Positions 6,771-57,470 are shown, counted from the whole stretch's first letter. The stretch is 63,992 bases of DNA, filler included, from Bonamia ostreae (GCA_040357525.1; 9 parts of 9 records of this genome joined end to end with filler, not necessarily neighbours in it), one strand, 5' to 3'. Numbers and translations are program-made. The notes: generated from the sequence alone by a model not told the origin.

Positions 6771-7422
6771 ATGTTTCAGCTTAAAACAAAGTACATCTTT
6801 CCAACTGCGAAACGCAACACAACGAACCTGCACAAAAACAGCGCAAAATTTCTAACGACCGACTACAGAGCATACAATTATAAGGAACACGGGGATCCCA
6901 GACACGTTCTCTCCTTTTCGGAAGTACGATTTCCAGAAAAGCCGAATTTCCGAGTAAAGCTTGCTCCCATAAACCCTTCTGACATCAACATGGTAACAAT
7001 AAAATTCACAGAGAAGATCGAAGGACGGTACCCGATGTTAAAACAATCGATCGTCAAAGTAGCGGGGAACGAGTGCGTTGGCTACTACTCGGATAATGGC
7101 GTTCAAAGACTTGCGATCCCAAGATATGGCAATTTGGGCACGTGGAGAAAATTCATACATGCGAAAGAAAGCGATCTGATCATCTTGCCGGATCACGTTC
7201 GGTACCACCCTTTTCTTTCGGCGGTCAGCATCAATCCGCTGACAGCTCTGCGTTTACTGAGAGATTTTGCATCTTTGAAAAGAAACCAATACATCATCCA
7301 AAACACGGCGAACAGCACTGTCGGACGCTGCGTGATCCAACTGGCGAAAATATTCGGATTCAAAACTATCAACATTGTTCGAAATCGGTTTTTGCAAATC
7401 TTAAAATCCAAATTTTGTTTTG
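6771..7422 (+). CDS. MECR: Mitochondrial trans-2-enoyl-ACP/CoA reductase, 3' truncated
   Basis: APINPSDINM-IEGRYP, GNECVG, GTWR, INPLTALRLL, IIQNTANSTVGRCVIQLAK; 24-nt intron at 6993-7016. Confidence 0.92.
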
Positions 7423-7522
7423 NNNNNNNNNNNNNNNNNNNNNNNNNNNNNNNNNNNNNNNNNNNNTTAATTAATTAANNNNNNNNNNNNNNNNNNNNNN
7501 NNNNNNNNNNNNNNNNNNNNNN
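7423..7522. other. Artificial contig-joining spacer (N44-TTAATTAATTAA-N44)
   Basis: Six-frame stop linker between N runs; genes on both sides are truncated. Confidence 0.98.
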
Positions 7523-8139
7523 CAACGCGTACATGTACGGCTGCTGCGGGCAAAAGTACATTGTTCTTTATGACACATTGCTCAAACAATGTTCCGAACA
7601 ACAAATTATAGCCATTCTCGGCCACGAATTGGGACATTGGAAGAAAAGCCACATCATCAAAATGTTCATAGTACTCGAAGCTTTTATGTTTAGTACATTT
7701 TACGCGATGAGATTGTTTCTATTTTCAGAGTTTTTAAATTAAAGTTTAGCGATTTGTACACTTCTTTCGGATTTACCGAAAACCCTGTTATTATAGGCAC
7801 TTTTTTGTTTTTTGTGCTCTATGAACCGATCGAGCAAATCAGAAGCGTTCTTTTTAACGGATACATGCGTTATTTAGAAAACGAGGCCGACGATTTTTCG
7901 AGCGATTTGGGATATTCCGAAGTGCTTTTTATTTTAAATTTTAAATGTTAAAATAGTCTTATGCAAATTTTATCGAATATGTACATTAAAAGCACCTTGT
8001 CGAAGGATTATTGGCTTTAGAAAGAGAAAACAAATCTGGTTTGATAACAGATCCAATCTATTCTTTATTCAAGCACAATCATCCTCCCATCATTGAGCGA
8101 GTAAGGAGATTACGTTTGAAAATGAACAAGGAATTATAA
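7523..8139 (+). CDS. STE24: CAAX prenyl protease 1, C-terminal part
   Basis: NAYMYG..IVLYDTLL, HELGH (HExxH), ENEAD, DPIYS..HPPIIER; 20-nt intron at 7730-7749. Confidence 0.92.
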
Positions 8140-8555
8140 ATTCTCAAATCTTTTTTCTAAAAATCTTTTTTTTAAATAGTTTAAAATAATATCTCTTACA
8201 AAAAACCATAAATTACATTATTTTTACAAAAACGATCAAAAATAACAATATTTTGTCAAAAAAAACAATTTTTCTTATAAAAACAACATTTTTTATTATA
8301 ATAAACAACAATTTTCAAAAGTTGTATAAAATGGATAAAATGTTGCCACCAAAGCAGAGATTTGATTAGATCTTTATTGACTTAAAAATCAATATTTATC
8401 TGAAAAATAAAAATGTTGTAAAAAGTTATCCTCCACAACACAAAAACATCTAATTTTGACCACATTCCGATCACATAAAACTCTTTATCTAACAATAACC
8501 ACATAAAATTCTTTAAACAACAGCCACAAAAAAACAACGATTATCAGTCAATTTC

Positions 8556-9959: not shown

Positions 9960-11163
9960 ATGGGCTGTTTCGATAAATGTTGCGGCAAAAGAGGAAAAAT
10001 CGAACCTTTGGTGGTTCCTCTACCAGGTTTCAATTGAATATATTCGTTCAACAAATTTAATTGGTGGTCCAAACATTATAAATTTTAACAGACAAAAATA
10101 ACGATGCGGAAAGTACTGCTTCATTAGACATTTTTTTCTTATCCAATTCAGTTATGCCAACATGGGAAAAAAAGTTGAGAGAATATAGAAGAAGATGTTT
10201 GAGAGAAAATGACGACGAAGGAATTCGTATTTTGGACAATTTGGAGTTTTATCGAAAAAACTGTTTTTAAATAATATTTGTGAAGACAAAATAAATATGA
10301 CAGAATGGCCAAATGTGAAAGCGATCGACGATTTTTGTGAGATCAATAACTGTTGTAAATATGAGCAGAGAAAAGATTACATTCTAGAACAGTTCGATAT
10401 TGAAAACTTTAAAATTTTACAATTTCTTCTGAAGATGGATAGACATCCCAATGTTCTAGATGTCGCGAGAGCTTTCGAATTGGATGATCAAATTTTTATT
10501 TATCGAGAAAAAACGATTTGCAATTTAAGGTTCATTTTATTTAAATCAAAGAGATGTCTTTTTGGACATAAAAATCAACATTCGTTTTTAATTTAAAACA
10601 TTAATTTTAAACTGGAAAACAAAATTTTTTACTTTCTTCGAAAATCAAAGCTGTCGTCTTCGCACACTTAATTTCAGGACTGTTCCATATTCACAGATCC
10701 AAGATAATCTACAGAAACATTGGCACAGAAAACATTCACGTCACAGAAGATTTCCGAATAATTTATTGTTTGTCGAACGAGTCGATTTTCAGTCCCAGCG
10801 ATTTGCCAGTCGACAACAGCGACGAAGAGGAGCAGTTTTTCAACTGTTTTTTTTAACAAAAAAGCGCAAAGAAGAAATTGGAAAATGATGACCGCCTACG
10901 AAGACGACGTCTGGACGTTGGGAATTCTCTTGAAGAAAATCGCCGACGGCGAAGATGTGCACTACGATCGAAACGCCAAAAGAATCAAAATCGAATATTC
11001 GCCGGATCTGATCGCTCGCGATGTGGAAGAAGTTTTGGAGGGATTTTTGAATGTTGACGCGGCTGAAAGATGGGGATTGAAAGATTTTGAGCAGATAAAG
11101 GGAAAAAGATTGTTTTACGGATTGGATTGGGACGACCTACCGCCCATAAATCAAGAAATTTGA
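9960..11163 (+). CDS. AGC-type kinase-fold protein, predicted pseudokinase, multi-exon
   Basis: MGCFDKCCGK start; HPNVL..AFE; HIHRSKIIYRNIGTENI; DVWTLGILL; AAERWG..QIKGKRLFYGLDWDDL tail. Confidence 0.7.
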
Positions 11164-11431
11164 TTATGCCATATTTGCAACAATGACGATATTCAAATTG
11201 CAAAATAGCAAAATTTGATTTTTCCGTAACATTAAAATTGTAAAATTGCAAAAATCGCTTTTTAATGGACCAAAAATTGCAAAAACGACAAAAATTGACT
11301 TAAAAACGACAAATCTTCGAAAACGACCAAATCGACATTAAATTCGAACAACCGAAAATGAACCGAAAACAGCCAATCCGAAAATCGCAACATCCCGCAG
11401 TTCACTTACCACAGCCAAACAACAAAACCAA

Positions 11432-12545
11432 ATGACCAAGTCAACCCAAGAACACGCTGATAAAGCCATTTGCGCTATTTTTAATCGCTTGTTTTTGAAA
11501 GTCCGATTAGCCAAAGAAATGGCTGAATTGGAAAGCGATCAGATCGGCAGCAAGAACATTTTGCTGGGTTGGGCCGATGCCATCGAAAGCAGTCTTCGTT
11601 CCGGCGACAGTCGCCCCGAAGCCAAAGCGCCCGGCGGCAAAAACATTTTTCTCTCCGTTTTCAACGATTTGCAGATCTTCGAGCGACTTTTGAAACTTTT
11701 CGTGCTCGGAGGCTCTTCAAAACTGCAAATCGGCGTGCTCAGTTATATGTTTTCGATGTGCTTCTACGGCAGCGAAGATTTTTATTTTTGGTTTCTGAAG
11801 CAAATCCTGTTAAATTTTTTCAAATCTCTTTTCTCTGACCCGTTTTAGACCGATTTCGGCGGCTTTGAGAGAAAGTCTAGGCGATTTGAAAAACTGCGCG
11901 GAGGTCGACCAATTTCTTTCGGCGATCACCGCTTTCCTCAAATTGCCTTCCGGCGGAAGCGGAGACGACTTTTTTTTGCTTTCGCTCCAAATCGACTGGG
12001 GCGACAAAACCGAAAAGAAAAATTTGGACCAAATCGGAAAAGACGTTGAAACGGCGAACGAAAACATTCGGAAACTGGTCGAAGCGGCGCGGAAAGTGAA
12101 AAGTTGCAGAGACCGTTTCATTTTTAGCGCGCCGCTGCGTTGCGGAGATGAAAAGGACTTCTTCGACTCGATCAAAAAACGCGTTCGGGCTTTGCACAAA
12201 ACGGGAAAAGAAGAACTCGAGTCGAAGGCGAATCGCTTCAGAGCGCAAAACAACACTCCGAAAAGCGTTTACCGCCGGAGAGTGATCGCGGAGCGCGTTA
12301 AACCGCTTCTATCGCAAATCGAAAAGAGGAAAATCGAGATTTCGGAGAAAGAGAAAATGGCGGGAGAACTGGAAAAAAAGCTTTTGGAAACGAGAGAAGA
12401 GATCGGGAATTTGAGGAAAGAAGAGAAAGAGCTCGAGATCGAGTTGAAATCGGAGCAGTTGAAGATCGAGGAGACCGTAGCGGATTTTTATAAGGACCAC
12501 AAGAAGCTGGGCGAGGAAATCCGCGTCGCCGTTACAAATTGCTAA
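11432..12545 (+). CDS. Hypothetical coiled-coil protein (2 exons)
   Basis: ORFs 11432-11848 and 11865-12545 join via a GT-AG intron at ~11809-11848; E/K-rich C-terminus. Confidence 0.65.
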
Positions 12546-12975
12546 AATTTGACAAAATTGTCGAAAATTGAAAATCGACAAAAATTTGATAAAAATTGAT
12601 AAAATTGTAAAAAATGATAAAAATTGATAAAATCTATAAAAATTGTAAAAATTGTCGAAATCGATATAATAATTTGATAAAATTGTCAAAAATTGATAAA
12701 AATTGGCAAAAAATGATAAAAATTGACAAAAAATGATAAAATTGATAAAATATATAAAAATTTGATAAAATTGTCAAAAATAGATAAAAATTGACAAAAA
12801 AATGATAAAATATATAAAAATTTGACAAAATTGATAAAAAAAATGATAAAAATTTGACAAAATTTGACAAAATTGTCGAAAATCGATAAAATCTATAAAA
12901 ATTGTCGAAAATAATAATTTGATAAAATTGTCAAAAATTGATAAAAAAAAATTTGATAAAATTGTTAAAATTTAC
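12546..12975. repeat. Degenerate ~10-11 bp tandem repeat (AAAATTGAT/C)
   Basis: Dozens of AAAATTGATA/AAAATTGTC variants. Confidence 0.85.
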
Positions 12976-13005
12976 AAAAATTGAAGCGACAGAAAAACAA
13001 AGCGA

Positions 13006-13530
13006 TTGAACTGTTCTCGAGTTTTATCTCCGAAGTCGAACTTAAATTCAAAAACGACTACGCTCCACAAAGAAAAATTTTCGAGAACATTCAACACAAA
13101 AATTATTCTACGTAAAATTAAAAATAAAAAAAGCCTTCTCCTCCAAACACGAAACCTGTTCTCGCTCCTGTCGACGCTCTCAGAACAAACGGTCGCCCAA
13201 ATCTGCAAAATCAAAAACTTTTTCAGCCAAATCAACAGCCACTTCCAAAAAGCACTTTCCTTCGAAATTTCCTGCGACGACAAAAACTTGTATCGAATGA
13301 ACTCCGAAGATCAATATGTTCAGAAGCTCGTTTCCCGCGGCGAAACTTTTTTGAGGAAGATAAGTTTTTGTGTCGAGAAGACCTGTTTGTTCTTGTCAGA
13401 AGCCGTTCCTTTCCAGCTCGTCCGGAAAGAGCTGTTGGACAAACTGGATTCGAATGTGCTGCGCTCTCTAAATCTGGACGAACATTTCGAATCGATTTTT
13501 GAAAAAGAAAACGAAATTGCTTTGGAATAA
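13006..13530 (+). CDS. Hypothetical protein
   Basis: 174-aa ORF; start unresolved. Confidence 0.45.
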   Translation: MNCSRVLSPKSNLNSKTTTLHKEKFSRTFNTKIILRKIKNKKSLLLQTRNLFSLLSTLSEQTVAQICKIKNFFSQINSHFQKALSFEISCDDKNLYRMNSEDQYVQKLVSRGETFLRKISFCVEKTCLFLSEAVPFQLVRKELLDKLDSNVLRSLNLDEHFESIFEKENEIALE

Positions 13531-13637
13531 ATTTCTTTTTCAATTTTTTCACAATTTTCAAATTAGTAAATTTAAAAATGGTTTTTGCAATTAGTCAAAA
13601 AAGATTGATCACAATAACATTTATTAAGCACGTCTGC

Positions 13638-14596
13638 TCACTCTCTGCTCTTTCGGTCCATCTCCTCCGCGGTGAACGAAATCTCATTTTCTGCGACGTC
13701 ACTTCCTTCTCTGTCTTTCCCGAGATGTTCGACTTTTGCGCCATCGTCTTTGTCGGAAGGCCGTTTTGTCTCCTGCAGCTCAGAGCCGACAATGTCCATC
13801 GTCTCCTCTGTGAATCCTTCGATTTTCTCTTTGGCGGAGCTGAAGATACCGGTGATGAAGTTGAGACCGCTTTTCACGCTTTCGTTCTCGCTCAGTTTGG
13901 CGACATGTCGGGACATGTCGCCTTTGATGCTGCCGATTTTCTCGGAAATGCCCATGTCGCTGTCTACTTTGCTCGCGCGCCGGTTCGCTTCTTCCCCCAA
14001 CGACTTTATTGTTTGCAATTGGCAATTTGCAAACGACGGAAAAGAAAAACTTTGGCGGATTCCGAGATGGAACGTGCGATTCCGCTGATTCCCGTCTTCT
14101 CGTCGACGTTCTGGAAAACGTCGTAGATGCTCTTGCGCGCCTTCTCCGCTTTCTGCTGCAATTCCCAGTCGCTCGCCATTTGGTTCGCGCCTTTGTACGC
14201 GCCGTGCAAACCCAAAATCCCGTTCGCGGCGAGACCGGTCAGTTGCTTCTGCGCGGTCTTCCTGAGTCGTGGGAGCACTTGTTGGTCGTATTTGGAGTAC
14301 GTCGTTTTGTGGTCCATGAGAAAGAGTCCTTCGTCGGAGCGGGCCATCTCTTCGACGTCTCGCAGGCGGTCCTCGTCGCCGACGACGAGGAGGACGTCGA
14401 CGCGGGAGTGGGGCTCGAGGAAGAAGAGGTTGGTCTGAGCGATGAAGCCGTCGTCGCCGCCGAAGAAGTTTTTGAGTTCAGCTTCGACTCCGGAGAAGTC
14501 TTCTTTTCGGGGGATTCCTCTGTCGCAATTTTCGGCGGCCCATTCGGGTTTGATGAAGAAAGAGAGGAGGGCTGCTTTGGAGCTGAGTTCTGCCAT
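13638..14596 (-). CDS. Hypothetical protein (2 exons)
   Basis: GC-rich codon usage; ORFs joined by a 47-nt GT-AG intron at 14004-14050. Confidence 0.7.
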
Positions 14597-14651
14597 TGGG
14601 ACGCAGAACGATTTCTGGATTGTGTCTGCGAGGTACTTTGGTCGATTTTTT

Positions 14652-14881
14652 AACGATTTTTTTTATAATTGTTTTTTCGATGAAATAGATTATTTTTTGA
14701 AAATTATTTTAACGATGAAATAGATTTTTTTTATAATTATTTTAACGATGAAATAGATTTTTTTTTATAATTATTTTAACGATGAAATAGATTTTTTTTG
14801 TAATAATTGTTTTTTCGATGAAATAGATTTTTTTATAATTGTTTTTTCGATGAAATAGATTTTTTTGATAATTATTTTAAC
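14652..14881. repeat. ~33-bp tandem repeat (CGATGAAATAGATTTTT core)
   Basis: About 6 copies running into the contig end. Confidence 0.85.
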
Positions 14882-16352: not shown

Positions 16353-19300
16353 TTAATTTTTGGAATTGATGACGTCTGCCAACAAACATAAAGTTTCATC
16401 CACATCGTCTTCCAATCTCTCAGATATTAAATTCATGTTTTTGGATAACTCTGCTAGCAATTTGCTATCCGCTCTCGATATTTCTTTTGAATGTGTCTAA
16501 AATTTAGAAAAATCAAATTTGAAAAATTAAAATTATTTTAAAAAACTTTAAAAAATAAATTTAGACAAGATTGAACCACTTCAAAATGGGCGAATTTGTT
16601 TGTCAATGAAATAAAAAATTTTAAAAATAATTCTATTTCTTCTTCTTCTTCAATAAATTGGAAATCCAAATCAATTTTCGAAATATTTGTTTTCTTCAAA
16701 TATTCCAATGCTTCTTTATCTTTAAAATCGAAATTGTAAAAATTGTTAAAAAAGTTTTTTCTAAAAAGATCAAAATTTTAAAAATTGTTAAAAAAGTTTT
16801 TTTCTAAAAAGATCAAAATTTCAAAAATTGTTAAAATATTTTTTCTAAAAAGATCAAAATTTTAAAAATTGTTAAAAAAGTTTTTTCTAAAAAGATCAAA
16901 ATTTCAAAAATTGTTAAAAAAGTTTTTTCTAAAAAGATCAAAATTTTAAAAATATTATTTTTTGAATCCAAAATTTAATTAGCAAAATTTTAACAATTTG
17001 TGATTTTTTCGCAACGTCTTAGAATTTTTATTAATTTGTTATCACTAAATTTGGAAATATTTTTATTAAGATCGTCATTCTCTTCAATCTCGTCATTTTT
17101 ATTATAATCTTCTAATGACGCTAAAAAGAATGGCGCATTTTCCATTTTTTTAACGGGCTCTATTGGTCGATTTCTTTCCTTTTTATAATTTTTTATTTTT
17201 GACATTTAATTGCCAAATTTTTATTTTTGGCAATATTAATTAGCCAAACTTTTTAAATCGCCAAATTTTTTTTAGCAAAAATAATTTTTGATAAAAACTT
17301 TAATCAAATCGTAAAAAGCGAGGTTTGCCCATTTATCAATTTTCGCCGAATTTGAAAAAACGACCAAATTTTCAATTTCACTATTTTTCTCTTTTTTGAG
17401 AACTTTGTTCTCATTTTTATCGTATTTGTTTTGATTATTTTCTTTATTGCTGTTCTGATTTTTGTCGCCGTCTTTGTTGCTCTCATTTTTATTCCACAAC
17501 AAATTTCTATCCAATTCGGTCAATTTTCCATCAACTTCTTCAAAATGAGAAAAATTTCCAGCTTTTAGAAAAAATCTTTTCGGAGGGACGTTTTTGTTTA
17601 CAGAATTTGTTGGCAAATGCATAAAATGGCTTTTGTTGATCCACAAGTGAACAGCTAATGAATTTGCGTGCGTTGTCATCAGAAATCTTTCATCCGGTGA
17701 AAAGTTTATCGATGTTGGAGGATCTTCGAATTCGAACCAATCGATTAATATATTTGAAAGTATATCGAAAACGCGCACTATTCCATTTGTCGTAGTTGTT
17801 ATCAACCAACGCCCGTTTGGATGAAATGTCTTTATTGTTGTTATTTTTGTTTGTCGTTAAAAACAAAATCGGAAATCCGAGAAAAATGAGTTTCGAATTC
17901 TCTGACCATTTTCATATTTGAGATATCAATTAATGTTATTTCAAAATCGTTTGTTGTTACTCCAAGAAGATTAGTTTCCAAATGCAGTTTCATTTTGGTT
18001 ATTGGCGATCGCAATTCCAAAAATCTCAAAATTCTCGCTTCTTCAAAGTTCCAAACCTCAAATTTAAAAGAATGTCAAACTTTGATTATTGAGTCTGTTG
18101 CGCCACTAATTAACGTTTTGTTAAAAGATTCGAAGCATAATCCAAAAATTGCTCCAGCGTGAGCAGATTTGCCAATATTTTCGTCAATAAATTTTTCTCT
18201 AAAATGGCTCGATTCCATGTTAAATTTGTAAATGTTTCCAGATTGTGTTCCGACCACACAAAAATTACCACAAACGCTCAAACTTACAGTCTTTTAATAA
18301 ATTTGACAGTTATTTCTTTTAATCGGCAATTTTAAAACAAATTTGAACAATTTAAAAAAAAACTAAAAACAACTTTAAAACAAATTTTAACAATTTTAAA
18401 AAATGGTGATCAGTTTTAAACCAAATTTTGAGCAATTTTGAAAACTAAAAACAATTTTAAATTATTGGATTGACCAAAAAATAATTTTTAATACGAAAAA
18501 ACGGTTATAATAGTTTTTTCCTTAAGCGAAAGTTTTTTCTTGTTCATCGCCTTGTTTTCGAAGGACCACGTAATGGCTTTATTTGACTTTTCATGACAGG
18601 TTATAATGTTCCACCATTGGCGCTCTTTTGCTTGAGCTTTGATTATTTTATGTGATCAAATATTATAAAAATATGATATATTTTAAATCATGGAAGTCTT
18701 TTGTAATCATTAGATTTGTTAAATTAGATCGCCTTAAACTAAAACGTAAAATGATTTGATCTCTAAAAAATTTAATCGACAAAATTTTTTGTTCACGAAA
18801 AATAATCTTTTAGACTAAAAAATTAGAAATGCCCTTTAATGGCAACACAAAAAATATCGAACAAATTGTAATAACTCAATAACAAAAAATAACATGTGCA
18901 CATATCAAGAGCAATTGGCAATTTGAGACGTTCTTTTTCGCTTTTAGTGTTTTTAGCCAATTTGTCTAATTTGCCTTGACTAAATTCCACATTTTGCTCG
19001 TCTCTAATAACTGAAATTCTTCTTAAAGCTCTATCACAACCAGCGCTTATTATATCGGTTCCCTTTTCGCCATAAAATTGAGCAAAAGATAGCGGCAAAT
19101 AATGTCCAGAACGAGATTTTAAACAGATAGCAGTTTGATCTTCCACATCGATTTTCCATATTTTTAAAGAATTGTCATTTGAAGCCGTAACAAGCTTTAA
19201 ATCTTCAAGAAAATATATGGACGAAATGGTCCTTAAATGAGCTTTTTTAATGATTTGATTTAGATTTTTTTCTTCTAAATCCCAAACGTTGACGCAACCG

Positions 19301-20187
19301 GATGTGGACGATGTGGCTAATATTCCCTTTTCGTCTTTTCCTACGGAAATTTGGAAAATTTAAAATCGCTAAAATTCGAATGTCGATAATTTTAGCCGAA
19401 AAACTGGAAAAGTCCAAATCGGTTATAGCGCCATTCGTTTGTAAAAAATCGGTCAAAACGACGTTTTGTTTAAGATTCAAAATCTCAATTTTCCCGTTTT
19501 TGTAACCGACTGAAACGACATTTTTAACTTGCGACGATTTAATTTTAAGCACAGAATTGACGCTGTTGTTACTTAAATTATCGGCATTAAAGACGAAAAT
19601 CGGTTTTTGCCGGAAAATTTTATATAGGATAAGCACACCATTTTCAAATCCGATTAATATTTTATCTTTGTGGCCATATAACGTTTCGACGCAAGATGAT
19701 TTATGCGGCAATTTTAAAACGGAACTTAATTTTAACGAATTGTCGTAAATCTCGAGTTGGTCTGTTTTAAGACATAAAAGAAATAAAGAATTTTCGTCGA
19801 TAGTTTTGGAGCTATGAAAATCTCCAACAGACTTTAACTCGATGAATTTGAGCTTTAGGACTTTAGATTTTTGTATAATCGATGATGTCTTTTTATGTTT
19901 TTGAAAGATAACCAGTTCGTTTCGTTTCCATAATGAAATGTGTTGGTTGTGGTAAGCGGCCGTAAAAGTTTGCTTTGAGGCAATCAGTTGAATTTTGGAA
20001 GCGACGGATTGGCCAAGATTTGCCAGTTTGAGTTTTTTGGCCTTTGGTTGTCAATCGAAACATTGTAGACGTGGAAAGTGTCCCCGACAGCGCAAGTCAA
20101 AAAATCGTCGTTTCCGAGGTTTTCACCACTTATAGGAACGTTGTTGCAAACAATTCCTAAAGCTCTATATGGTGCGAATAGCGACAT
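16353..20187 (-). CDS. WDR36: U3 snoRNA-associated WD40 protein WDR36/Utp21, multi-exon
   Basis: MSLFAPYRALG start; RSGH..FYG..IISAGCDR; SVCGNFCVVG..FNMES; FSPDERFLMTTH..LWIN; ENAPFFL. Confidence 0.93.
16738..16952. repeat. 42-bp tandem repeat (~5 copies) inside a WDR36 intron
   Basis: AAAAATTGTTAAAAAAGTTTTTTCTAAAAAGATCAAAATTTT unit. Confidence 0.9.
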
Positions 20188-39941: not shown

Positions 39942-39949
39942 TTACTCGT

Positions 39950-40864: not shown

Positions 40865-41632
40865 ATGATGCGGTTTTGCTATTTGTTGTCGCTCTTTGCT
40901 GTTTTGGCTTCAATGGCAGTTAACTCATGTAAATTTTGCCCTTTTCTCGACAATTGTTTTAGAGAATTTCCTTCTAAAACAAAACTGCACGTTTTTGGGC
41001 ATTATGTAGATTTTAACAATTTGAACGATTTCTTCGTATTTTTAACGTTTAGTTTCATTTTTTGTGGCATCCTTCTACTTAACAAACCGCGAAAGTTCAA
41101 AATAGACATGGCCCTGGCGATAATTATTTGCTACTGTTTCTATCTCGGAAACCACTTAATGGTTTTTCTTCTCAAATTTCTGTTTGGCGATTCTAATTGC
41201 AACACAAAACCAAATAGCGTTTCTGGCCATTTCAACTTCTACGTTTATTTCTTGCTCTCCCTTCGACACATTTTCACTGCTTTCAAAGTTTTTTCAGTTC
41301 AAAACAGAAATCTCAAGTTGAAGAAAAATTTTTCTTTCTGGAAACTAGTTATGTCTTCTTCGCATTGTTGTCATTTTTGAACCTCTCNNNNNNNNNNTAT
41401 GAATAAAGGCTCTTTGTCACATGTCTTTTACTGTTCAGTCTTGTTTCCAATGGTCTTGCAAAGAAAGGGCAAGAAAACAGCTCTAAAGATAGCGTTGGTT
41501 TTCCAAGCGACGTTTGCTCTGCTTTTAATCTTATTCAAAATACACAATGTTTTGTTCGAAAAAGGGCATCTCTTTGTCGGCAGTTATCTGTTATATTTTT
41601 TGATAATAAATATCCGTTATCATTTTGATTAA
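40865..41632 (+). CDS. Polytopic membrane protein, possibly PAP2/FIT-like
   Basis: Several TM segments; SVSGH motif; internal N gap. Confidence 0.45.
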
Positions 41633-45206: not shown

Positions 45207-45825
45207 TTTTTGTACTTTATCGATATTTTTAAGATTGAACTCGCTTTTCTGGTTTGCGGCGCTTTTCTATATTTCCGCAATTTTTAGATTTAGCCGAATT
45301 ATCAAAATTTAAAAATTATTTGTTTGCAAAAAAATGTAAATTTATCATTGTCGATTTTNNNNNNNNNNNNNNNNNNNNNNNNNNNNNNNNNNNNNNNNNN
45401 NNNNNNNNNNNNNNNNNNNNNNNNNNNNNNNNNNNNNNNNNNNNNNNNNNNNNNNNNNAAAATTTAAAAATTATTTGTTTGCAAAAAAATGTAAATTTAT
45501 CATTGTCGATTTTTATCGTTTTGCAAAAAAATCTAAATGTGCCAAATTGGTAAAAGTATTTTCACAAAACTTCAAACTGGCTCAAATTTGCAAATTGCTT
45601 TTTTTGTTACATTGTCAAATCATTTTTTATCAAATTACTTTTGAATATTAAATATTTTAAAAACATTTTTAAATAACCCTTCAAAAAATTATCGTAGATG
45701 AAACATTTTTATGATTTTAACATTTTTAAAAAAAAAACATCGTAGATGAAGCGGAGAATTTTGAATTTAATTAAAAATCGTTACGAGAAAAAACTGCGAT
45801 ATAAGTTTAAGCACAATTAGTCAAA

Positions 45826-47010
45826 ATGAATTTATCAGAAATAACATTGACATATTTCTTCGCCACAAACTCTTTCAAATCTCTCTCCCTTTTTAGCAAA
45901 ATGTTAGTTGTAACTATAATTGCTTTCATTGCTATCTCTGCGACGTCAGTTTGCAGATACACGAAAAAAACAAAAAATAAATTACCACTGTCTGTGAAAA
46001 CGAAAAATCAGTCAAAAATGGATAAAATTTTTGAAAATTATCTTCGAAAAATTAATGTTTTTTGTGATTGGTCCAAAATTTTTCAGAAAACTGTCAAAAT
46101 GCGTTTGGAGCAAATTAAAAACCTTTTCGCAAAAAATGCGATAACTTTTACACCGAAAAACAAAATCGAAAACGAACCTTCAAAAAGTTTCTTCAACAAA
46201 AAATTGATCAACAAAGACCAAACAGTAATTCTCAGCAACTATCCTGAATGGTGGAGCACTTCAAAATTGGAAAAAATCTTTTTAAAATTCGGAAAAGTTA
46301 AAAATCTCAAGATTATTTTTCCTATTCGAGGAAAGAGATTCTGTAAAACTACTTTTTACACTCGCAAAGAAGCCAAAAACGCGGTTGATATTTTGAATTC
46401 AACTATCTTTTCTTACAAAATTGTTAGCGCCGCCTTAAAAAGCGACTTGGAACTTGTCAAATCAGAGGAATCGAAAAATGAAAGAAGTTTTGGTGATTTT
46501 GGCACACCTTCTAATTATAGACTTTTGAGTTTAAATTTTCAGAAACAACTAAAATCGACCGAAAAATATTTTCAGAATTTGAACATGGGTAGGATAAAAA
46601 CAGATTCTAATGATATCGAAGATTCCAGCAGTTCTGAGAACACTTCTACCGATTCATCTTCTGAAGAAAGGGTGTTCTTCAGAAAAACAGGGAACAGTTT
46701 TTTAAGAAAAGGGGATTACCGAGTTTTGAGAATGGGCTCTGATTCGCGCCAACCGCCGCGCAAAGTGTGTATATATTTCCAAAAAGGGATTTGTAGAAAG
46801 CTCACCGATTGCACTTTTATGCACTTCTGGCCTGAAGACATTTGCCAGAGATTCATCAGAGGGGATTGTGACATTAAAGACTGTAATTTGGTGCATGTCG
46901 ATTCTGAAAACAGAATCTATGTCCCTTCAAATGGGCAAATTAGGAACGAACGAAGATTTAATGAAAAACGTGTTGATGAAATAGTGAAGGAGGATAAAAG
47001 GGAATATTAA
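45826..47010 (+). CDS. RRM + tandem CCCH zinc-finger protein with N-terminal hydrophobic segment
   Basis: RRM (VILSNYP..IFLKFGKV..RFCKTTF); C-x7-C-x5-C-x3-H and C-x7-C-x4-C-x3-H fingers. Confidence 0.8.
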   Translation: MNLSEITLTYFFATNSFKSLSLFSKMLVVTIIAFIAISATSVCRYTKKTKNKLPLSVKTKNQSKMDKIFENYLRKINVFCDWSKIFQKTVKMRLEQIKNLFAKNAITFTPKNKIENEPSKSFFNKKLINKDQTVILSNYPEWWSTSKLEKIFLKFGKVKNLKIIFPIRGKRFCKTTFYTRKEAKNAVDILNSTIFSYKIVSAALKSDLELVKSEESKNERSFGDFGTPSNYRLLSLNFQKQLKSTEKYFQNLNMGRIKTDSNDIEDSSSSENTSTDSSSEERVFFRKTGNSFLRKGDYRVLRMGSDSRQPPRKVCIYFQKGICRKLTDCTFMHFWPEDICQRFIRGDCDIKDCNLVHVDSENRIYVPSNGQIRNERRFNEKRVDEIVKEDKREY

Positions 47011-47202: not shown

Positions 47203-48470
47203 ATGTCAGGATTAATCTTCTGTTTTACGCTAATATCTGTCCATTCAATCAACGAAGAAAATATTTCAGAGGTAATATTAAATTTTATTGGTGAAGGTGC
47301 ACGTTCATTACCCCATAAACTCAAAGTTTTATATTTGAATTACAGCGCCGATTCTAAAAATTTTGAATACGGAGGATCTACAGTTGCAACAAATCATTTT
47401 ATCAGACTGACCCCGTCCGTTAGCAATAGATTTGGCTGGATTAAATCGACGAAAGCCGTTGAAAGCACTATTTTTAGAATGGATGTTGCCCTCAGGTTTA
47501 CAGGAGGCAACAGATACACAAATGGCGATGGAATCGCGATCCATTTTTTTGACCAACCCGATGACACCGACTTCTTCGTCTCTCAATATTCTGCTGAAAG
47601 TTTTTACGGCGTAAATCCGTCGCAAAGAGGGTTTTCGGTGGTTATAAAAACTAACGAAGATGGAAAAGTAAAAATCTTTATAAGTGACAATATGAAAGCC
47701 AAAGATCGAAACGTTTAGTACAAAATATAAACAGATTGACGATATTTTTGAGAACAACGCGGGAGGTTCTTTTGTAACAGGTACGTGTCTTCTAAATTCT
47801 TTTGGCGATGAAAAAAACACAATCGTGATTAACTTTTTCAAAGAAGATGTATATATCTATTTTGAAACCGATAAACTAGAATTTTGTGCAGCAGCAAAGC
47901 TTTCCAAAACGTTTGAGAATTTCCCCCGTTTTGGAATAGGAGCAATGACATCAGAACAATTCAATAATCATGATATTTTCTCAGTATTTGTTAAAACTAG
48001 CAGATCGAAAAATAGCAATAAAAGTATCGATTCATTTTTAAAAGCTGGAGAAAAATCATTTTCCGAATCTTTTAGATTACTGAAAAAGTGCTTATTTTTT
48101 TATTGTAATCAGTTTTTGTAATATTGTAAAAAAAGTCGGATAAAGAGAATGTTTTGGTTTGCTGCTGTGATTTCCGGAATGTTGTTGTTTCTGGAGACGG
48201 TTTGGGAATTGTCTCTTTTGCAACACGTCGTCAACGACAAAGTTTTGTAAAAACGTTTTAGCTCGTTCCAAAAGAAACTTTGAATCTAATCAATCTGGCG
48301 GTCCCTTACACCAATTACGTGATGATCGGTCTCTTCGTCTACACTTTGTTGTCGTTCAGAATTTTGATGGCGATCTTTTTGGCGCCGATTTTCGCGTTCA
48401 AAGTTTATCGACTTGTTTTTTGCAAAAAAGTAATTTCTGAAGACGAACAAAAAGAACGTATTGAAATCTG
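47203..48470 (+). CDS. L-type (legume-like) lectin, ERGIC-53/VIP36-like, copy 1
   Basis: FEYGGSTV..IRLTPS..GW, GDGIAI, FGIGAMT..NNHDI; C-terminal hydrophobic segments. Confidence 0.8.
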
Positions 48471-49619
48471 ACGAATTTGATTATACAAAAAATTTTAATG
48501 GTTATTCGATAATGCTGTGTGCGTCTGTTGTTGCATATGTTTTTTATACTTTTCTCGCGGTTGGAGAACTCGTTTCGTTCTAAATAAATGGAAATCTTGA
48601 AGTCTATTACTTTTTTAATAAATTTTTATTCATTTTTAAAACTATTCAGATTTTTATTGAAACAGATATTACTTAAAAACTTTTTCGAATTATGAAGTAC
48701 ATTGAAAATTATGTAACAATCATTTCCATTTTTGAAAATTTTCGTTCAATATGTAAATTCTTTCTAATGTTAGTTTCATTTGCGAAACAAAACCGATTGT
48801 TTTGCAGTAATGCAAAAGCTGCAATTTAATTTGCAGAAAACAATGAAAAACATTTAATTTGGCTTTGAAGTATTCAAAATAAAAAACAGTAAACAAAAAA
48901 GCCAATTTGTAACAAGATTGTTCTCAAAAGATTTTGTTACTCGCAATTTTTTGTGCATAGAACGAAAACAAAATATTCGAAAAAACATAGAAAACAAGTT
49001 TCAAGTCATTTACGTTTACTTTCCATATTGTTTCTATATTGAAACATAATTTAAGTTTAGATTTTCATTTAAAAACAAATACAACAAAGTAAAAAAATTT
49101 AGTTTCAATAAAGAATATTAAATGATAGACTAAAAAAGTTTGAACAAAACTAATGATTACCAATTGTCAAAATGTTTTTAGATTGGTAAAATTATTTAAC
49201 ATATTATTTACATTGGTCCCAAAGATAAAATTTACAGTAAAAAATGCGAAAATTGAATGCAAGATAATCCTTATTAGGCCTAAAAAGTCGAATCATAATT
49301 CTTGTTAGAAAAAATATTCAAACAGACAAAAATAAAACTTTAAAATTTAACAGACAAAATGTTTGAGAAAATCGTTTAGAAGACATATAAAAAATAGATC
49401 CATAAATTTTTCAAAATATTTGAATTTACAACATCACTAAAAAATCTGCTCGAGCAAAGATGAACCCGACGATTTTTAATATTTCGAAATTAAGTCGAAA
49501 CACTAATTACAAAAAATAGATTTAGCTCGACAAAACTTTTCTAAAACAGCAAATCGCTATTTTAACTAATCTCCCATTTTAAAAGATAAAAATATATTTC
49601 TAATTTATCGATAATCGAG

Positions 49620-50916
49620 ATGTCCGTAAAGCTTTTTTGCCGATTGGCAGTTTTGTTTGCGTCGATTAACAACGCATTCAAAATATCAAACGTTTCCCTC
49701 AAAAATTAACAAAAAGACACATTCTCTAAATCACCCGATTAACTCAAAGTTTGCTCTCTTAAAAAAAGTGTCAACACAAAAAATTTTGAGTACGGCGGAT
49801 CCACAGTAATCACGAGCGATTTCTTGAGACTCACAACTTTGAGCAAGGGGACGCTGGGATGGCTCAAGGCGCCGAAGCCGCTTCACTCGGATGTTGTGGA
49901 AGTGCAGTTGGAAATAAGAATTTCGGGGCCGAACAAGTTCCATGGCGGGGATGGGATAGCCATGCACTTTTTCGACGCCGAGGATAACAGTTCCTCTTTT
50001 CGGTCTCACTATCAGAAGAAAGACCTCTTCGGCGTAGACCCGTCTCGGAAAGGATTCTCGGTCGTTCTCAAAACGAACGAGAAAAATTACAACCAAATCA
50101 TTTACGTCGACGATAACATGGAACAAGATCGCGAAGACGTTTTGATCGCTAAAAACGCAGAACTCGAAAAAGGAAAATAAGAAATCCAAAAGACGCAGCT
50201 CGTGCGCTGTCAACATTCGCAACCAAGACAATTTGAAATTGATCGTTCGTTTGTTCAGAGACAACGTCTACGTCTACAAAGTTATCAAGCGACCTGGCCA
50301 CAAGAGAGGGAACACGGAGTTTTGTCTTGACGCCCATCTCTCGAGGAAATTTGACCACAAACCTGTTTTGGGGGTCAGCGCAACGACTTCCGAAAAAACA
50401 GACAACATCGACGTTTATTCGCTGCAGGTCCGGTACAAAGAGCCGAGCAGAGCACAAGGAACAGAAAACGTCGAAAAGTTTTTGGAAAGAGCGAGAAAAA
50501 ATTTTCCGCGGAAAGCTTTAAGATTACCGAAAAAGTACTTTTTTCCATAAAATTTTGTGAGCTTTAATATTCTAAAAAAGTCGGATAAAGAGAATGTTTT
50601 GGTTTGCTGCTGTGATTTCCGGAATGTTGTTGTTTCTGGAGACGGTTTGGGAATTGTCTCTTTTGCAACACGTCGTCAACGACAAAGTTTTGTAAAAACG
50701 TTTTAGCTCGTTCCAAAAGAAACTTTGAATCTAATCAATCTGGCGGTCCCTTACACCAATTACGTGATGATCGGTCTCTTCGTCTACACTTTGTTGTCGT
50801 TCAGAATTTTGATGGCGATCTTTTTGGCGCCGATTTTCGCGTTCAAAGTTTATCGACTTGTTTTTTGCAAAAAAGTAATTTCTGAAGACGAACAAAAAGA
50901 ACAAACTGAAATCTGA
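49620..50916 (+). CDS. L-type lectin, ERGIC-53/VIP36-like, copy 2
   Basis: FEYGGSTV..LRLTT..GW, GGDGIAM, LGVSATT..DNID; first two introns at the same positions as copy 1. Confidence 0.8.
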
Positions 50917-51064
50917 CGAATTTGATTATACAAAAAATTTTAATGGTTATTCGATAATGCAGTGTGCGTCTGTTGTTGCATATGCGTTTTATGTTATGCT
51001 CGCGGTTGGAAAACTCGTTTCGTTCTGAAATAAAGAGAAGACAATTTTTGAAGTCGTTTATTCT

Positions 51065-51730: not shown

Positions 51731-51907
51731 AAATATTTTATCAAAAAAAAGACGAAAAAACTTTAAAAAAAGAGGAAAAAACTTTATTAAAAACGAATAA
51801 AAATTTGTTAAAAAATCGAAAAAATATTCGAAAAAAAAGAAAAAGACCAACTTTGCGCTTCAGAAATCGCAGAAATAATAATAAGAAACTCGTTTGAACA
51901 GGAAAAG

Positions 51908-52690: not shown

Positions 52691-53022
52691 TTTTGTGAGC
52701 TTTTGATATTATATTGCTAACTGTTATATTATGATTCGATATATTGCGATGTCATGTTATTTTAAATTTTTGCGAAAAAATCATCTTCTGAGTTGTTACT
52801 TTAGATGAAGCTGTTTAGAGTGCTTTAGTCTTCAGCAAATAAAAGAAGAAAAAGTGGCAAGTCGATTTAATATTGATATAGGAACTTTTGTGTTTCGGTT
52901 TCTTCTTCTTCTTCAACTGTTTCTATCCTATTAATATTAGCTTTTCCTTCATTATCACATGAATCTCGGTAATTTAGACTTAGAATTTGAGGTGGACCGA
53001 GGAGATCTTCTACAGCTTTTTT

Positions 53023-53182
53023 AAAGGAATTGATGGATTCAAAAATTAGATTAGATTGATAAAAGTAAACCTTTTTTATTTGAATCCATTTGCTTGAATA
53101 TATATATTTTTAAGTTGCAAACCAGTACGCGTCTGTATTCAACTTATCTAAAGATTTTAAAAATATGAATTGTTGTGTTTTT
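53023..53182. repeat. ~160-bp duplicated segment, copy 1
   Basis: Near-identical to 54333-54494. Confidence 0.9.
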
Positions 53183-54332
53183 CCGAGTATTTGTTAAGCA
53201 AAGTTGATATTAAAATTATCCGGAAACAAAAAAAAGAAAACAATTTTAGCAATATTTCCAACAGAGAATTATATAAACATTAGAAAATTTACAAATTTTT
53301 AACAGAATATTTTTTATGGAAAACATTTTTATTGCTAAACAGTAAATTTGTTCTGTACGCGAGGGGATATAAAATCATTTGAAGTCAAACATTTGCAGAA
53401 AATGCATCTTGGCTAGAAGCAACTAAAGCGATACATTGAAAACCGTAGCAGCCGGTTTATCCCGATGCGGTTGGAAACAGCCCTACATGTGGCACCGTTT
53501 GGATTACTCTGAACACGAAAGCTTCTCTGCAGTCGAGGAAAATTGAAAGTACAAAATCCCGACTTGCAAAGTTGATGACACGTCGAACCACGCAAAATTC
53601 GCCTGTTTAAAATTCGAGGTCGAGAGACGTCGAGTTCTCGGTAAACCAAAGTTGAAGAAAAATATATCACTCGATATTGCATGAGGACACTCTAAAGGGC
53701 GACAACAATGGTCGGCGTCTGGTCGAAAATGACCAGGCAGAGAAGCAACGTGCTTAAATGTCAAATGACCGCTTAAGCAATGCTTATTAATAAATCTTGT
53801 TCCGTCAAAAAATATGATGCAAGATGCAAAATGGAATGGAATTTGGAACATTATGCGATTTTTCGTGTATACAAGGAAAGCGACAAAACAAAATGGACAA
53901 GTCGATTTAATATTGATACAGAAACTGCTGGGTTTCAAAATTATCTAAGTTAATGATCGTTTTTGTACCATGACTGTTTCTAACATCCTCGAGTCTTTCT
54001 TCAGCCATTTCTTCATTAATTAATTCTTCCTTTATTTCAATTTTTTTGTATTTGTCTTCATCACCTACAACTTCATTGCCGATCTTCGAAACTTTATCAT
54101 CTTTCGTATTATCGTCGGTACCATTTACTTTTTTTCGGTAGTTTTTTTCTGTACCATGACTGTTTCTAACAATTTCGAGTGTTTCTTCAACCATTTCTCC
54201 ATTAATTAATTCTTTCTTTCTTTCAATTTTTTTGTATTCGATTTCATCACCAACACCTTTATCTTCGACTTTAAATACTTCATAATCTCCCGATTCATCG
54301 AAAACATTTTCTGCATTTTCTAGTTTTTTTAA

Positions 54333-54494
54333 AAAGGATTTGATGGATTTAAAAATTAGATTAGATTGATAAAAGTAAACCTTTTTTATTTGAATCCATT
54401 TGCTTGAATATATATATATTTTTAAGTTGCAAACCAGTACGCGTCTGTATTCAACTTATCGAAAGATTTTAAAAATATGAATTGTTGTGTTTTT
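54333..54494. repeat. ~160-bp duplicated segment, copy 2
   Basis: Near-identical to 53023-53182. Confidence 0.9.
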
Positions 54495-55213
54495 CTGAAT
54501 TATGGTTTTGAAATATTTATATAACGAATAAACTACAAAAAATAAAAAGAATAATCTTCTTTGGCAATATATTTTCTAATCAAGTAAAAATATTCTGCTT
54601 TATTAAAATGCCTTTCAGCCAAACATAATTTTTCCCATTTTTTTAATTTCCAAAACAATTTCTTTTTTCGGGAGGGGCTTTATCTTCGTTTAAAAGGAGT
54701 TTCTAACTACATTTTTTCGGTGTCTCAAGTTGACGGGAGTGCTAATCTCATCCCTTTTTACCTTATTTATCATACTTCTCTTTATCCGTGGGTGGTGTAG
54801 ATGCTAATTTGTTTTTATATATTCCAAGTTATCATCTTTGTCTATGTCGTTAGTTGATGGGAGGAGATTAGCATGTATATGCCTATCATAGTTATATCCA
54901 TAGTTATATACTTCTGTATTGAAATCACATAGCAGGGATAACATTTAATTTCGCTTGGTGATATTATTTTAGTACTTATCTTTTATAAGTAAAAAATTTG
55001 TATTTTTCTTTCCTAGATTTTTCTCTATGACTTTCCACTGTTCAAAGAAAATTTTGTCAATATCTCTTTTATTTATCCTTCTAATAGTTGCAATACTGAG
55101 ACCGAACTATTTAACGGTTCTACATATTTTCCTTAGAAACCTTTATAAGGTTCCTGTTTCCTCTTTTTACAAAATACATCCCTCAAATATCCTTCAAATA
55201 TTCAAAATATTCT

Positions 55214-55445
55214 TTATCGAACGTTAAAAATGAGTGGACTAACAAGAGAAACTTGTGGTACTCCTTTTTTAAATTCATGCCAATTCGTTGATCCGCCTTT
55301 GAATGTTACTTTATTATATCTCTTTCCCAGAAAATATCTTAACTGGTTGTAAAATTTGCCGAAAACTCCTCTTCTATCTAACATTTTCATTAATTTGTTT
55401 CTATTCACACAATTGTATGCTTTTTTGACATCCAAGAAAACCTGC
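55214..55445 (-). mobile_element. Degenerate non-LTR retrotransposon reverse-transcriptase fragment
   Basis: FLDVKKAYNCV (LDxxKAFD) and GVPQVSLVSPLIFN (GVPQGSxLSPxLFN); stop before any YADD motif. Confidence 0.8.
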
Positions 55446-56521
55446 TACAAAATATTTTAAACCTTGTTGAAATATTTTAACAATAAGGTAACTATCGAAT
55501 TATCGCCATACTTAATCATAAATGGCTGTATTCAATCAACGCCCGTATATTTTGTCAGATTTAAAAATCTTAATGATTGAGGTAGTTTCTAGAATGATTG
55601 GTGCACTCAGTATTTTGAATCTATCAGTTTTATTCCTCCCATTCCTCATTTCTATTTGATACAATATTTTGTCCTGAGATCTTAATTTAGAAAGGTATTC
55701 GACTATTTTTTCATGTCTTGTTTTCATCTAATATAGGTTTCATCAATTCCTATTTTATCTGAATTTTCTTTTCGAAACCTGTTTTTGGCCATTTTAATAC
55801 CTTTTCTAGATTTCTATATCTTGATTTCTTTGCGATTTTCTTCTAAGTTTCAGCCTTTTTTTAATTTATCCTTTCGGTCGATTTTTGAAGAGATTATGTA
55901 AGCCGCGATTCTTCTTCATGAGCTATTTTTACGATTACTCTGCTTTTCTGTATTTTTTACGATTTACTTTGGAGATGTTCAATTTAACCTATTTGAACGC
56001 ATTGTTGAATTTTTGGAGCTTTTTCTTCGAAACTATGTTACGAAAATAGATGTTGAATAAAATAGGGTGAGAGTGCTATCTTATTAAAATTATCTTTAGT
56101 TTATGAATCTGAAAAGAAAGATATTGCAATATCGCTAAAAACCATTCTAATTAGAAAGGATCTTGAAACGCCATTTTAATTAGAACGTTTTGAACTTTCG
56201 TTCTAAGAATATTTCTAGAAATTATTGATAAAAAATGTTTTGAAAAGAGACGAATTTTCGACCAAAAAACATTCTGCCACGCAATTATACAGAACTTTGA
56301 TGAGAATTTACATTAAAAATCTCTACAATAAAAGAACATAAAACAGTCATTTCCAAAAAAAAACAAAAAACAAAAAAAGGGCTAAAAACGAACACATCCC
56401 ATACCACCCCAAAAACCAGCCATTCTGGTTGTTCACACCATCGCTCATCAAAAAAAGCTAAAAGCTAAAAGCACAAATACACCACAAACCATTAAAAGCC
56501 AATTAAGAATAGGTTAACTTA

Positions 56522-57470
56522 ATGGCGCTTCCCCGCGAAAACCACAAAACATCCTACATGCGCCGCTTCGTCGTCAAATACAAAAGAAGGAGACAGTGCA
56601 AAACGAACTACAGAAAGCGCGCCCGCCTCGTGGCACAGTACAAAAACAAGTACGAGACGAACAAATACCGTCTGGTCGTCCGGAAAACGAACAGAGACAT
56701 CATTTGCCAAATCACCTCGTCCGACCTTTCAGGCGACAAGTGCCTCGTTTCCGCTTATTCGCACGAACTCAAACGGTACGGCGTCCCCTGCGGACTCAAG
56801 AATTATCCCGCCGCCTATTGCACCGGAATGCTGCTGGCCAAGCGGCTTTACGCCAAGCTCAAAAAGGAGGTCGAAAGTGTCGCCGAAGTCAACGGTGAGT
56901 TCTATCTCGACGACGAGTCCGGCGCGTTCAGAGCGTTCCTAGACACCGGTCTCGCGCGGTGCTCGACCGGCGCCAATATCTTCGGCGTCCTGAAAGGGGC
57001 CGTAGACGGTGGCCTGAACGTGCCTCACAACACGAGGCGGTTTCCGGGATCGACTTTCGAGAAGAACGACGACGGCGTGAAGCAGTGGGAATACGAACCC
57101 GAAGCGCACCGCGACAGAATTTTCGGAGTGCACATCGCGGAATATATGCGAAAGCTGGAGGGAGACGATCCCGAGAAATACAAAAAGCAGTTCGGGTTGT
57201 TCATAAAAGTTTTGAATGACATTGTAGAACAAAATCGGGGCGGACGATATCGAGCAGATGTACCGGAAGGCGCACGACAAAATCAGAGCGAATCCTTATG
57301 TTCAGAGAGACAGCAAAGAACTGGGCTATTTCAAAGCGAACAGGAACAAGCCCAGAAAATCGGCGGAACAACATAATAAAACGAGAAAAAGCTTCCGAAT
57401 TAAAAAACTGACGGGGAAAGAAAAAAAGCAGAATGCGCTAGAAAAGCTTGCAGCAGTTGAAAATAAATAA
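56522..57470 (+). CDS. RPL5: 60S ribosomal protein L5 (uL18)
   Basis: KYRLVVR, AYSHEL, NYPAAYCTG, GAVDGGLNVPH; a 19-nt intron at 57209-57227 restores the frame to the MYRKAH tail. Confidence 0.97.

Follow-up and report, generated by a model that had tools for sequence, protein, structure and literature searches.

Examining a stretch of 63,992 bases made up of nine separate contigs (5.2–7.4 kb each, with N spacers between them; hereafter the window), we found that its genes are interrupted by very short segments with GT..AG ends that are, very probably, genuine U2-type introns with a very short length mode, most likely recognised by splice-site sequence across the intron and not by a length ruler. 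An initial annotation had listed 12 such segments as ultra-short introns on independent contigs and had proposed that a modified spliceosome defines them largely by length. The introns themselves proved real: all 12 segments have the coordinates and lengths originally given, each has GT..AG ends when read in the direction of the adjoining open reading frames (ORFs), the removal of each joins open frames, and the set curated here (32 introns) extends over eight of the nine contigs. The proposal on length was not supported, as introns of 35–275 nucleotides (nt), some of them in one gene, carry the same signals, and recognition of splice sites is therefore likelier than a length ruler.

Transcript evidence came from contig 8, which alone was compared with four public runs, including the DNA run X1, runs X4 and X5, and X7, declared as RNA-seq. 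The library type of X5 is not recorded, and this run was treated as RNA because it covers the contig in a transcript-like manner and agrees with X7. Two introns of this contig are precisely absent from mature RNA and present in DNA (2 of the 32 curated):

57209-57227, plus strand: 19-nt intron in the gene for ribosomal protein L5 (RPL5, uL18), supported by a transcript versus a DNA contig and by homologue colinearity

54320-54380, minus strand: 61-nt intron, GTTT..AG, near the 5' end of its gene, supported by a joint 54319->54381 in X7 and X5

At RPL5, an 868-nt contig of X5 (56531-57417) omits exactly the 19 nt of the intron, while a contig of the DNA run X1 (54466-57549) retains them; X4 and X7 hold no contig spanning 57209 and are uninformative either way. 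The closest full-length homologue aligns with residues 1–230 up to 57211 and with residues 232–303 in another frame from 57234, and the X5 cover of the gene is confined to its transcribed part. The joint of the 61-nt intron has CT..AC ends, that is GT..AG on the minus strand, and is missing from X1. Removal at the RNA level is thus precise in two cases, and about a dozen introns line up exactly with homologues.

Poly(A) loose ends mark transcript 3' ends on contig 8. One of them, at 57480 in X7, places the end of the RPL5 mRNA ~13 nt past the last coding base (57467), and the 3' untranslated region is therefore very short. The protein database entry P0001 (56522-57373, plus strand) is the unspliced 284-residue RPL5 ORF, which continues across the intron and ends up out of frame, so that intron-blind gene calling truncates genes of this organism. 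The gene carrying the 61-nt intron (53893-54410, minus strand) belongs to no known family, has very high cover in the RNA-like runs, a poly(A) site at ~53893 and an acidic, internally repeated product.

Beyond position and ends, independent evidence supports 7 of the 12 segments listed initially, being either a transcript contig set against a DNA contig or an exactly colinear match to a homologue, a solved structure, a Pfam profile or a paralogue. Four more (23258, 24966, 26160 and 38621) are backed by two domains or family parts lying in different frames, and for one (29400-29419) the evidence is the ORF join by itself. Together with two importin-beta introns absent from the initial list, those outside RPL5, Utp21 and the lectin genes are the following:

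6993-7016, plus strand: 24-nt intron, MECR-like enoyl reductase; 8-residue alignment gap

7730-7749, plus strand: 20-nt intron, phase 2, Ste24/ZMPSTE24-like M48 protease; structure numbering

23258-23279, minus strand: 22-nt intron, mitochondrial carrier; Mito_carr repeats in two frames

24966-24987, plus strand: 22-nt intron, F-box/LRR gene; F-box upstream and LRR downstream in the other frame, the junction itself not being fixed by homology

26160-26182, plus strand: 23-nt intron, phase 1, Aa_trans amino-acid transporter; profile match at exon start

29400-29419, minus strand: 20-nt candidate intron near a gene start; ORF join

33242-33264, minus strand: 23-nt intron 1 of importin-beta; junction scoring and N-terminal colinearity with protein P0121

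33164-33182, minus strand: 19-nt intron 2 of importin-beta, absent from the initial list; junction scoring

33037-33058, minus strand: 22-nt intron 3 of importin-beta, absent from the initial list; tied best of 1181 any-boundary candidates

38621-38647, minus strand: 27-nt intron 1 of Nop10, with an in-frame TAA; reading of the minus strand of 38451-38691

38546-38568, minus strand: 23-nt intron 2 of Nop10, phase 1; Nop10p profile at exon start

In the enoyl reductase gene, the segment is in frame and free of stops, so that its retention would add 8 residues, and the alignment gap against the MECR chains 1zsy_A and 2vcy_A comprises exactly these 8 residues. In the protease gene, where the Pfam M48 domain lies upstream of the intron, residue 62 of the upstream exon corresponds to residue 363 of ZMPSTE24 (PDB 5syt_A), six further residues and the split codon lead to 370, and the first downstream residue corresponds to 371. 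The carrier gene has Mito_carr repeat 1 in the upstream frame (E 1e-19) and repeats 2–3 in the downstream frame (E 3e-44); PDB alignments were tried for this junction and set aside as too ambiguous, given the three-fold repeat. From its first residue onward, the exon following 26160-26182 matches positions 20–60 of the Aa_trans profile. Likewise, the last exon of the 64-codon Nop10 gene (38451-38543) matches Pfam Nop10p positions 34–52 of 52 from its residue 1 (29.4 bits for a cut-off of 27.2), a match that also provides the gene's identity. Neither exon flanking 29400-29419 has a family match, and a weak POT1-like match lies further along that gene.

The short lengths can also be recovered when no boundary rule is imposed. 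At eight junctions, all frame-keeping excisions of 6–90 nt were scored against homologues with no GT-AG rule, and at seven of them the top score fell on the length of the GT-AG candidate (19, 23, 19, 22, 20, 24 and 35 nt), the GT-AG candidates themselves ranking 1–6 among 493–3045 excisions. In importin-beta, for instance, 33242-33264 was tied best of 493 candidates and was the sole GT-AG candidate there, and at 33164-33182, after which a tblastn match to P0121 residues 37–69 continues in the next frame, the best length was 19 nt with the GT-AG candidate ranking 6 of 1037. At the eighth, junction 2 of the Utp21 gene, the best excision was 67 nt versus 64 nt for the GT-AG candidate (rank 39 of 3435). 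The short lengths therefore follow from homology without assumed boundary dinucleotides: a GT-AG segment of the right length is tied with the best excision or lies a few bases from it, which chance would rarely produce.

Two ERGIC-53/legume-like lectin genes located on one contig provide a paralogue comparison, each needing five introns for a full ORF colinear with the other:

47272-47296, plus strand: 25-nt intron 1, lectin gene 1; the frame needs it plus 47326-47345, and the paralogue has a 25-nt GT..AG at the same place

47326-47345, plus strand: 20-nt intron 2, lectin gene 1; 20-nt GT..AG counterpart in the paralogue

47713-47734, plus strand: 22-nt intron 3, lectin gene 1; uninterrupted ORF model colinear with the paralogue

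48112-48135 (alternative end 48147), plus strand: 24-nt (or 36-nt) intron 4, lectin gene 1; ORF model

48242-48261, plus strand: 20-nt intron 5, lectin gene 1, identical to 50687-50706; ORF model and alignment

49692-49716, plus strand: 25-nt intron 1, lectin gene 2; the read-through frame meets a stop, paralogue comparison

49749-49768, plus strand: 20-nt intron 2, lectin gene 2; paralogue comparison

50139-50160, plus strand: 22-nt intron 3, lectin gene 2; profile split over two frames, ORF model

50535-50592 (alternative end 50580), plus strand: 58-nt (or 46-nt) intron 4, lectin gene 2; ORF model and alignment

50687-50706, plus strand: 20-nt intron 5, lectin gene 2; within the 98% identical duplicated 3' part, ORF model and alignment

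Around introns 1 and 2, the exon flanks and the micro-exon between them are conserved and the intron interiors have diverged. In gene 2, the Lectin_leg-like profile is split around 50139-50160, with positions 17–116 and 139–225 in two frames. Over the last ~390 nt of the two genes (48125-48520 and 50572-50965), shared 20-nt intron included, identity reaches 98%, and it is much lower in the 5' halves (mean column identity of 77% for the first ~230 nt), a pattern that suggests recent gene conversion or partial duplication. In addition, intron 4 of each gene has two in-frame AG acceptors 12 nt apart, which may reflect alternative 3' splice-site use.

Tiny and long introns coexist in the Utp21/WDR36 gene (16497-20187), which was modelled against 11 homologues from a representative search and whose exons are colinear in Pfam profile coordinates:

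20042-20061, minus strand: 20-nt intron 1; best GT-AG junction (898 versus 779 for the next), any-boundary best also 20 nt

19341-19404, minus strand: ~64-nt intron 2; homologue coordinates contiguous across 19409->19356, with 64, 67 and 70 nt all possible

18637-18893, minus strand: 257-nt intron 3; best junction, homologue residue 392 at 18904 and residue 394 at 18637

18291-18502, minus strand: 212-nt intron 4; tblastn colinearity and best junction

18057-18080, minus strand: 24-nt intron 5, with an in-frame stop; best junction (1305 versus 874), any-boundary tied best

17830-17864, minus strand: 35-nt intron 6; best junction (1766 versus 1321), any-boundary best also 35 nt

17179-17298, minus strand: 120-nt intron 7; best junction (830 versus 601)

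16720-16994, minus strand: ~275-nt intron 8, boundaries weakly resolved; junction score 457 versus 425

16497-16546, minus strand: 50-nt intron 9; best junction (584 versus 368)

The exon after intron 3 matches positions 67–107 of the Pfam propeller. Inside the ~275-nt intron lies a 42-nt tandem repeat (16727-16953; 5.4 copies, 93% matches). A search for Utp21 relatives among longer sequences found none.

Over the whole curated set, 23 of the 32 introns measure 19–27 nt, one 35 nt and eight 50–275 nt (individually 50, 58, 61, 64, 120, 212, 257 and ~275 nt), with a median of 23 nt, a minimum of 19 nt and commonest lengths of 19–25 nt. The 5' splice site is unusual: 28 introns have T at +3, where the background frequency is 0.336 (binomial p 4e-10), and the remaining four have A; T also stands at +4 in 25 and at +5 in 20. 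A GTTT start is shared by 25 introns, including 20 of the 24 of at most 35 nt and 5 of the 8 longer ones, and by 11 of the 12 segments of the initial list. Positions +3 to +5 were not considered when introns were chosen by homology, although they may have swayed the choice made in the initial annotation. The exon end preceding GTTT(T) is A-rich, its last base being A in 17 of 32 cases. Introns end in AG, mostly as AAG or TAG (position -3: A 16, T 9, C 5, G 2; n=32), and A occupies -8 in 20 and -7 in 18 introns, an enrichment that may mark the branch point. Neither a clear polypyrimidine tract nor a conserved branch motif was seen in these introns; only GTTT(T) and AG are conserved and the interiors differ.

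Several observations weigh against this interpretation of the segments. The transcript evidence concerns 2 of 32 introns on one contig, one of them ultra-short, and the 19-nt splice is seen in X5, a run of unrecorded library type. The junctions at 23258, 24966, 26160 and 38621 rest on frames and domains only, the 12 segments of the initial list may have been partly chosen for GTTT, the curated introns at 48242 and 50687 are copies and not independent, and the A enrichment at -7/-8 is modest. The curated set is also biased, as detection from broken frames misses any stop-free intron with a length divisible by 3. Finally, in a window-wide count of ORF junctions, GT..AG ranked only 9–24 of 64 composition-matched dinucleotide pairs and GTTT..AG 3–9 of 128, at about twice the median; this enrichment is undiscriminating because many ORF pairs involve shadow ORFs and the coding sequence is GA-rich.

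Recognition mainly by length through a modified spliceosome, as proposed for lineages whose introns vary within 1–4 nt, would agree with the strong mode of the distribution (23 of 32 introns at 19–27 nt and none below 19 nt), with a 5' signal that is short and unusual and with the want of a clear polypyrimidine tract. Mikrocytids, which are possibly related, have moreover been reported, in passages of PMC10245619, to have a reduced spliceosome in which only the U2, U4 and U6 small nuclear RNAs (snRNAs) were found. We nevertheless consider it unlikely, since nine of the 32 introns measure 35–275 nt and bear the same 5' signal (GTTT in 5/8 long versus 20/24 short introns), the 61-nt intron among them being seen spliced in RNA-seq, and Utp21 by itself mixes introns of 20, 24 and 35 nt with others of 50, ~64, 120, 212, 257 and ~275 nt. 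Even the short class spans 9 nt here, versus 1–2 nt in mikrocytids. Recognition through splice-site sequences would instead proceed across the intron, as in other eukaryotes, and the short mode would represent the end state of a deletion-biased shrinkage towards the smallest intron that the spliceosome tolerates, an idea borrowed from passages of the mikrocytid study (PMC10245619). A GTTT 5' site may, in addition, need a changed U1/U6 pairing.

Explanations other than splicing deserve far less weight. The contigs are short (~7 kb), some have N gaps and one was compared with reads, so that frame breaks could have been assembly or sequencing errors (indels or small insertions), but the interruptions are blocks of 19–27 nt with GT..AG ends and not indels of 1–2 nt, homologues have no counterpart of them, and paralogues retain equally long segments at matching positions. 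Furthermore, the RPL5 locus is found with the 19 nt in a contig from a DNA run and without them in a transcript-like contig. Assembly error is thus excluded at RPL5 by the DNA contig and is very unlikely elsewhere from the size, ends and paralogue conservation of the segments, leaving next to no chance for this explanation as a whole. Removal by DNA elimination, as for the internal eliminated sequences of ciliates, or else translational bypassing or frameshifting, is hardly more credible. The length and AT-richness of the segments do resemble those of short eliminated sequences and, as the type of X5 is not recorded, its contig lacking the 19 nt could in principle be DNA; the ends are nonetheless GT..AG and not TA..TA, that X5 contig covers the transcribed part of RPL5 only, and the 61-nt joint of X5 recurs in a run declared as RNA-seq. 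Standard stops are used, with a 766-codon exon open in the standard code, and bypassing would not yield transcript contigs without the segment.

Set beside known systems, these GT-AG introns resemble the extremes described in chlorarachniophyte nucleomorphs, ciliates and mikrocytids, to which the initial annotation had compared them, in being mostly shorter than 30 nt, but the size range is far wider here. Mikrocytids (Mikrocytos mackini and Paramikrocytos canceri; Ascetosporea, Rhizaria) likewise combine extremely short GT-AG-type introns with AT-rich genomes. They parasitise marine invertebrates, molluscs included, with a G+C content of 30–33% (Table 1 of PMC11069148). According to passages of PMC10245619, their introns are few (224 in 179 genes), all 16 or 17 nt long and highly conserved throughout, and those passages report no introns in their metabolic and transporter genes. 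The window differs in having introns of 19 to ~275 nt with unconserved interiors, located in transporter and enzyme genes among others, and whole-intron sequence conservation of the mikrocytid type was not seen. Introns of 18–21 bp in the Bigelowiella nucleomorph and of 15–16 bp in Stentor are cited in the same part of PMC10245619. Large numbers of introns below 30 nt are common to the window, the nucleomorph and heterotrich ciliates, but the range is narrow there and broad here, where the genes are ordinary nuclear ones using the standard code. A set confined almost entirely to a range of 1–4 nt was not found, as 23 introns of 19–27 nt occur together with others of 35 to ~275 nt.

The length distribution looks more like those of dicyemids and myxobolids than like those of narrow-range systems. 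Dicyemid introns (Dicyema sp. and D. japonicum) have a reported median of 27 bp, some two thirds of them falling below 30 bp (PMC6543705), and a reported mean of 38 bp, with 6.2 per gene (PMC6736024). Their 5' signal is reduced to 'GTa' and a weakly conserved A lies upstream of the 3' AG (PMC13644364). As in the window, where the median is 23 nt, dicyemid introns are GT-AG with a very short mode and a longer tail, but the 'GTa' there is replaced here by T at +3 in 28/32 introns. The D. japonicum genome has 36.7% G+C and 5,012 genes in 67.5 Mb, compared with ~33% G+C and about one gene per 2–3 kb in the window. The hosts of dicyemids are cephalopod molluscs, and no feature of the window assigns its source to Metazoa. 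Myxobolid myxozoans (Henneguya, Thelohanellus and Myxobolus) have median introns of 22–27 bp with reduced splice motifs, and an A near the 3' AG has been proposed as their branch site, canonical U2-dependent splicing having been inferred for dicyemids and myxobolids alike (PMC13644364). They differ in having 'GTa' where the window has GTTT and in parasitising fish and annelid hosts, and no cnidarian affinity appears in the window. For other ascetosporeans, passages of PMC11069148 call paramyxid and Bonamia introns 'canonical' and give no lengths, and the word 'intron' does not occur in four supplements of that paper. A literature search on Bonamia, Marteilia, Haplosporidia and Haplosporidium found no stated paramyxid or haplosporidian intron lengths, although unseen supplements may report some.

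The relatives of the encoded proteins offer limited guidance on the lineage. Named RPL5 relatives comprise two rhizarians (58–59% identity), an amphipod transcriptome entry (62%) and a tapeworm (55%), and in a quick RPL5 tree the window grouped with proteins P0002 and P0004. Among PDB entries, RPL5 bit scores are not discriminating, with 227–238 for several entries taken to be vertebrate versus 226.7 (5xxb) and 222.6 (7qiw). Importin-beta gave only 3 matches (27–28% identity), and its nearest atlas clusters, of plant and diatom, are not discriminating either. A metagenome scan for RPL5 returned 15 loci, all at or below 49% identity, so that it yielded no close relative for comparing intron positions, and a scan of genome contigs for relatives found none. 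One run in which part of contig 8 occurs bears the label mollusc metagenome, and the source is an AT-rich, gene-dense and fast-evolving eukaryote, probably a parasite that lives in association with molluscs. The G+C content and gene density of the window are within the values listed for ascetosporean parasites in Table 1 of PMC11069148, which falls short of proving such an affinity.

The contigs of the window are placed as follows:

1-7422: contig 1
7523-14881: contig 2
14982-22239: contig 3
22340-29585: contig 4
29686-36894: contig 5
36995-44185: contig 6
44286-51441: contig 7
51542-58684: contig 8
58785-63992: contig 9

N gaps also occur inside contigs, at 41388-41397 and 45359-45458. The Pfam scan took in all 238 stop-to-stop ORFs of at least 70 residues and matched Utp21/WDR36, a UCH protease, a mitochondrial carrier, an F-box/LRR protein, an Aa_trans transporter, importin-beta, two legume-like lectins, a cyclin, ribosomal protein L5, an M48 protease, SAC3/GANP and a reverse-transcriptase fragment. 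Of the 294 shorter ORFs (48–69 residues), 150 were scanned, with a Utp21 exon as the sole match. The gene set is thus one of ordinary eukaryotic nuclear genes, the density given above being a rough count from these scans. No Rfam family matched the window at the gathering threshold or at E up to 0.1, hence no snRNA was found, and a tRNA search of the window found none.

In the part of contig 9 that was read, no ultra-short intron was seen and the candidates are of middle size: one of 67 nt (58918-58984, plus strand, GTTA..AG) would join an upstream ORF to the SAC3/GANP exon, and a further one of ~110 nt follows 59254. On contig 2, the stretch 10200-14720 has ~38% G+C and long ORFs on both strands with no Pfam match, and a codon-based finder gave high scores to both strands. 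This finder, which works by dynamic programming on codon usage and called genes on both strands of G+C-richer stretches, was not used as evidence; it chose wrong introns, with 49 nt versus a homology-backed 19 nt in importin-beta and 62 versus 20 nt in Ste24. On contig 8, contig depth in run X4 peaks over the short stretch 52853-53021 (minus strand), and a poly(T) loose end at 52853 corresponds to a minus-strand poly(A) site, in overlap with an 80-codon ORF (52870-53109) that has no Pfam match. The RVT_1 fragment at 55217-55444 (minus strand; E 2.8e-06), in a stretch without RNA cover, is probably a decayed retroelement. A 399-codon ORF at 45811-47007 (plus strand) has an RRM and CCCH zinc fingers resembling CPSF30-type fingers in PDB. 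From a weak match to the Torus domain, which we take to be linked to Cwc2/RBM22-like splicing factors, it was considered as such a factor; this was dropped, as its zinc fingers match the CPSF30 type instead.

Introns below 30 nt test the smallest substrate that a spliceosome can handle, and few lineages are known to have them; the present case, with a minimum of 19 nt, adds another. As tiny introns and introns of 50–275 nt share both signals and genes here, length and signal become separable in one organism. The GTTT 5' site, in place of the usual GTA or GTRAGT, raises the question of its pairing with U1 and U6. In practice, predictors that do not admit introns of ~19 nt will produce badly truncated gene models and, if the organism is a mollusc parasite, such truncated models affect every downstream proteome analysis. 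We offer only as a tentative suggestion, and a doubtful one, that the window belongs to a eukaryotic lineage, perhaps a rhizarian mollusc parasite outside the mikrocytids, whose tiny introns are undescribed in print, with most introns shrunk to ~19–25 nt and a 5' consensus changed from GTRAGT to an A-rich exon end followed by GTTTT. If this is true, recognition of the 5' site would be either independent of U1 or ensured by a retuned U1/U6 pairing, and standard or prokaryote-style gene calling would truncate many genes.

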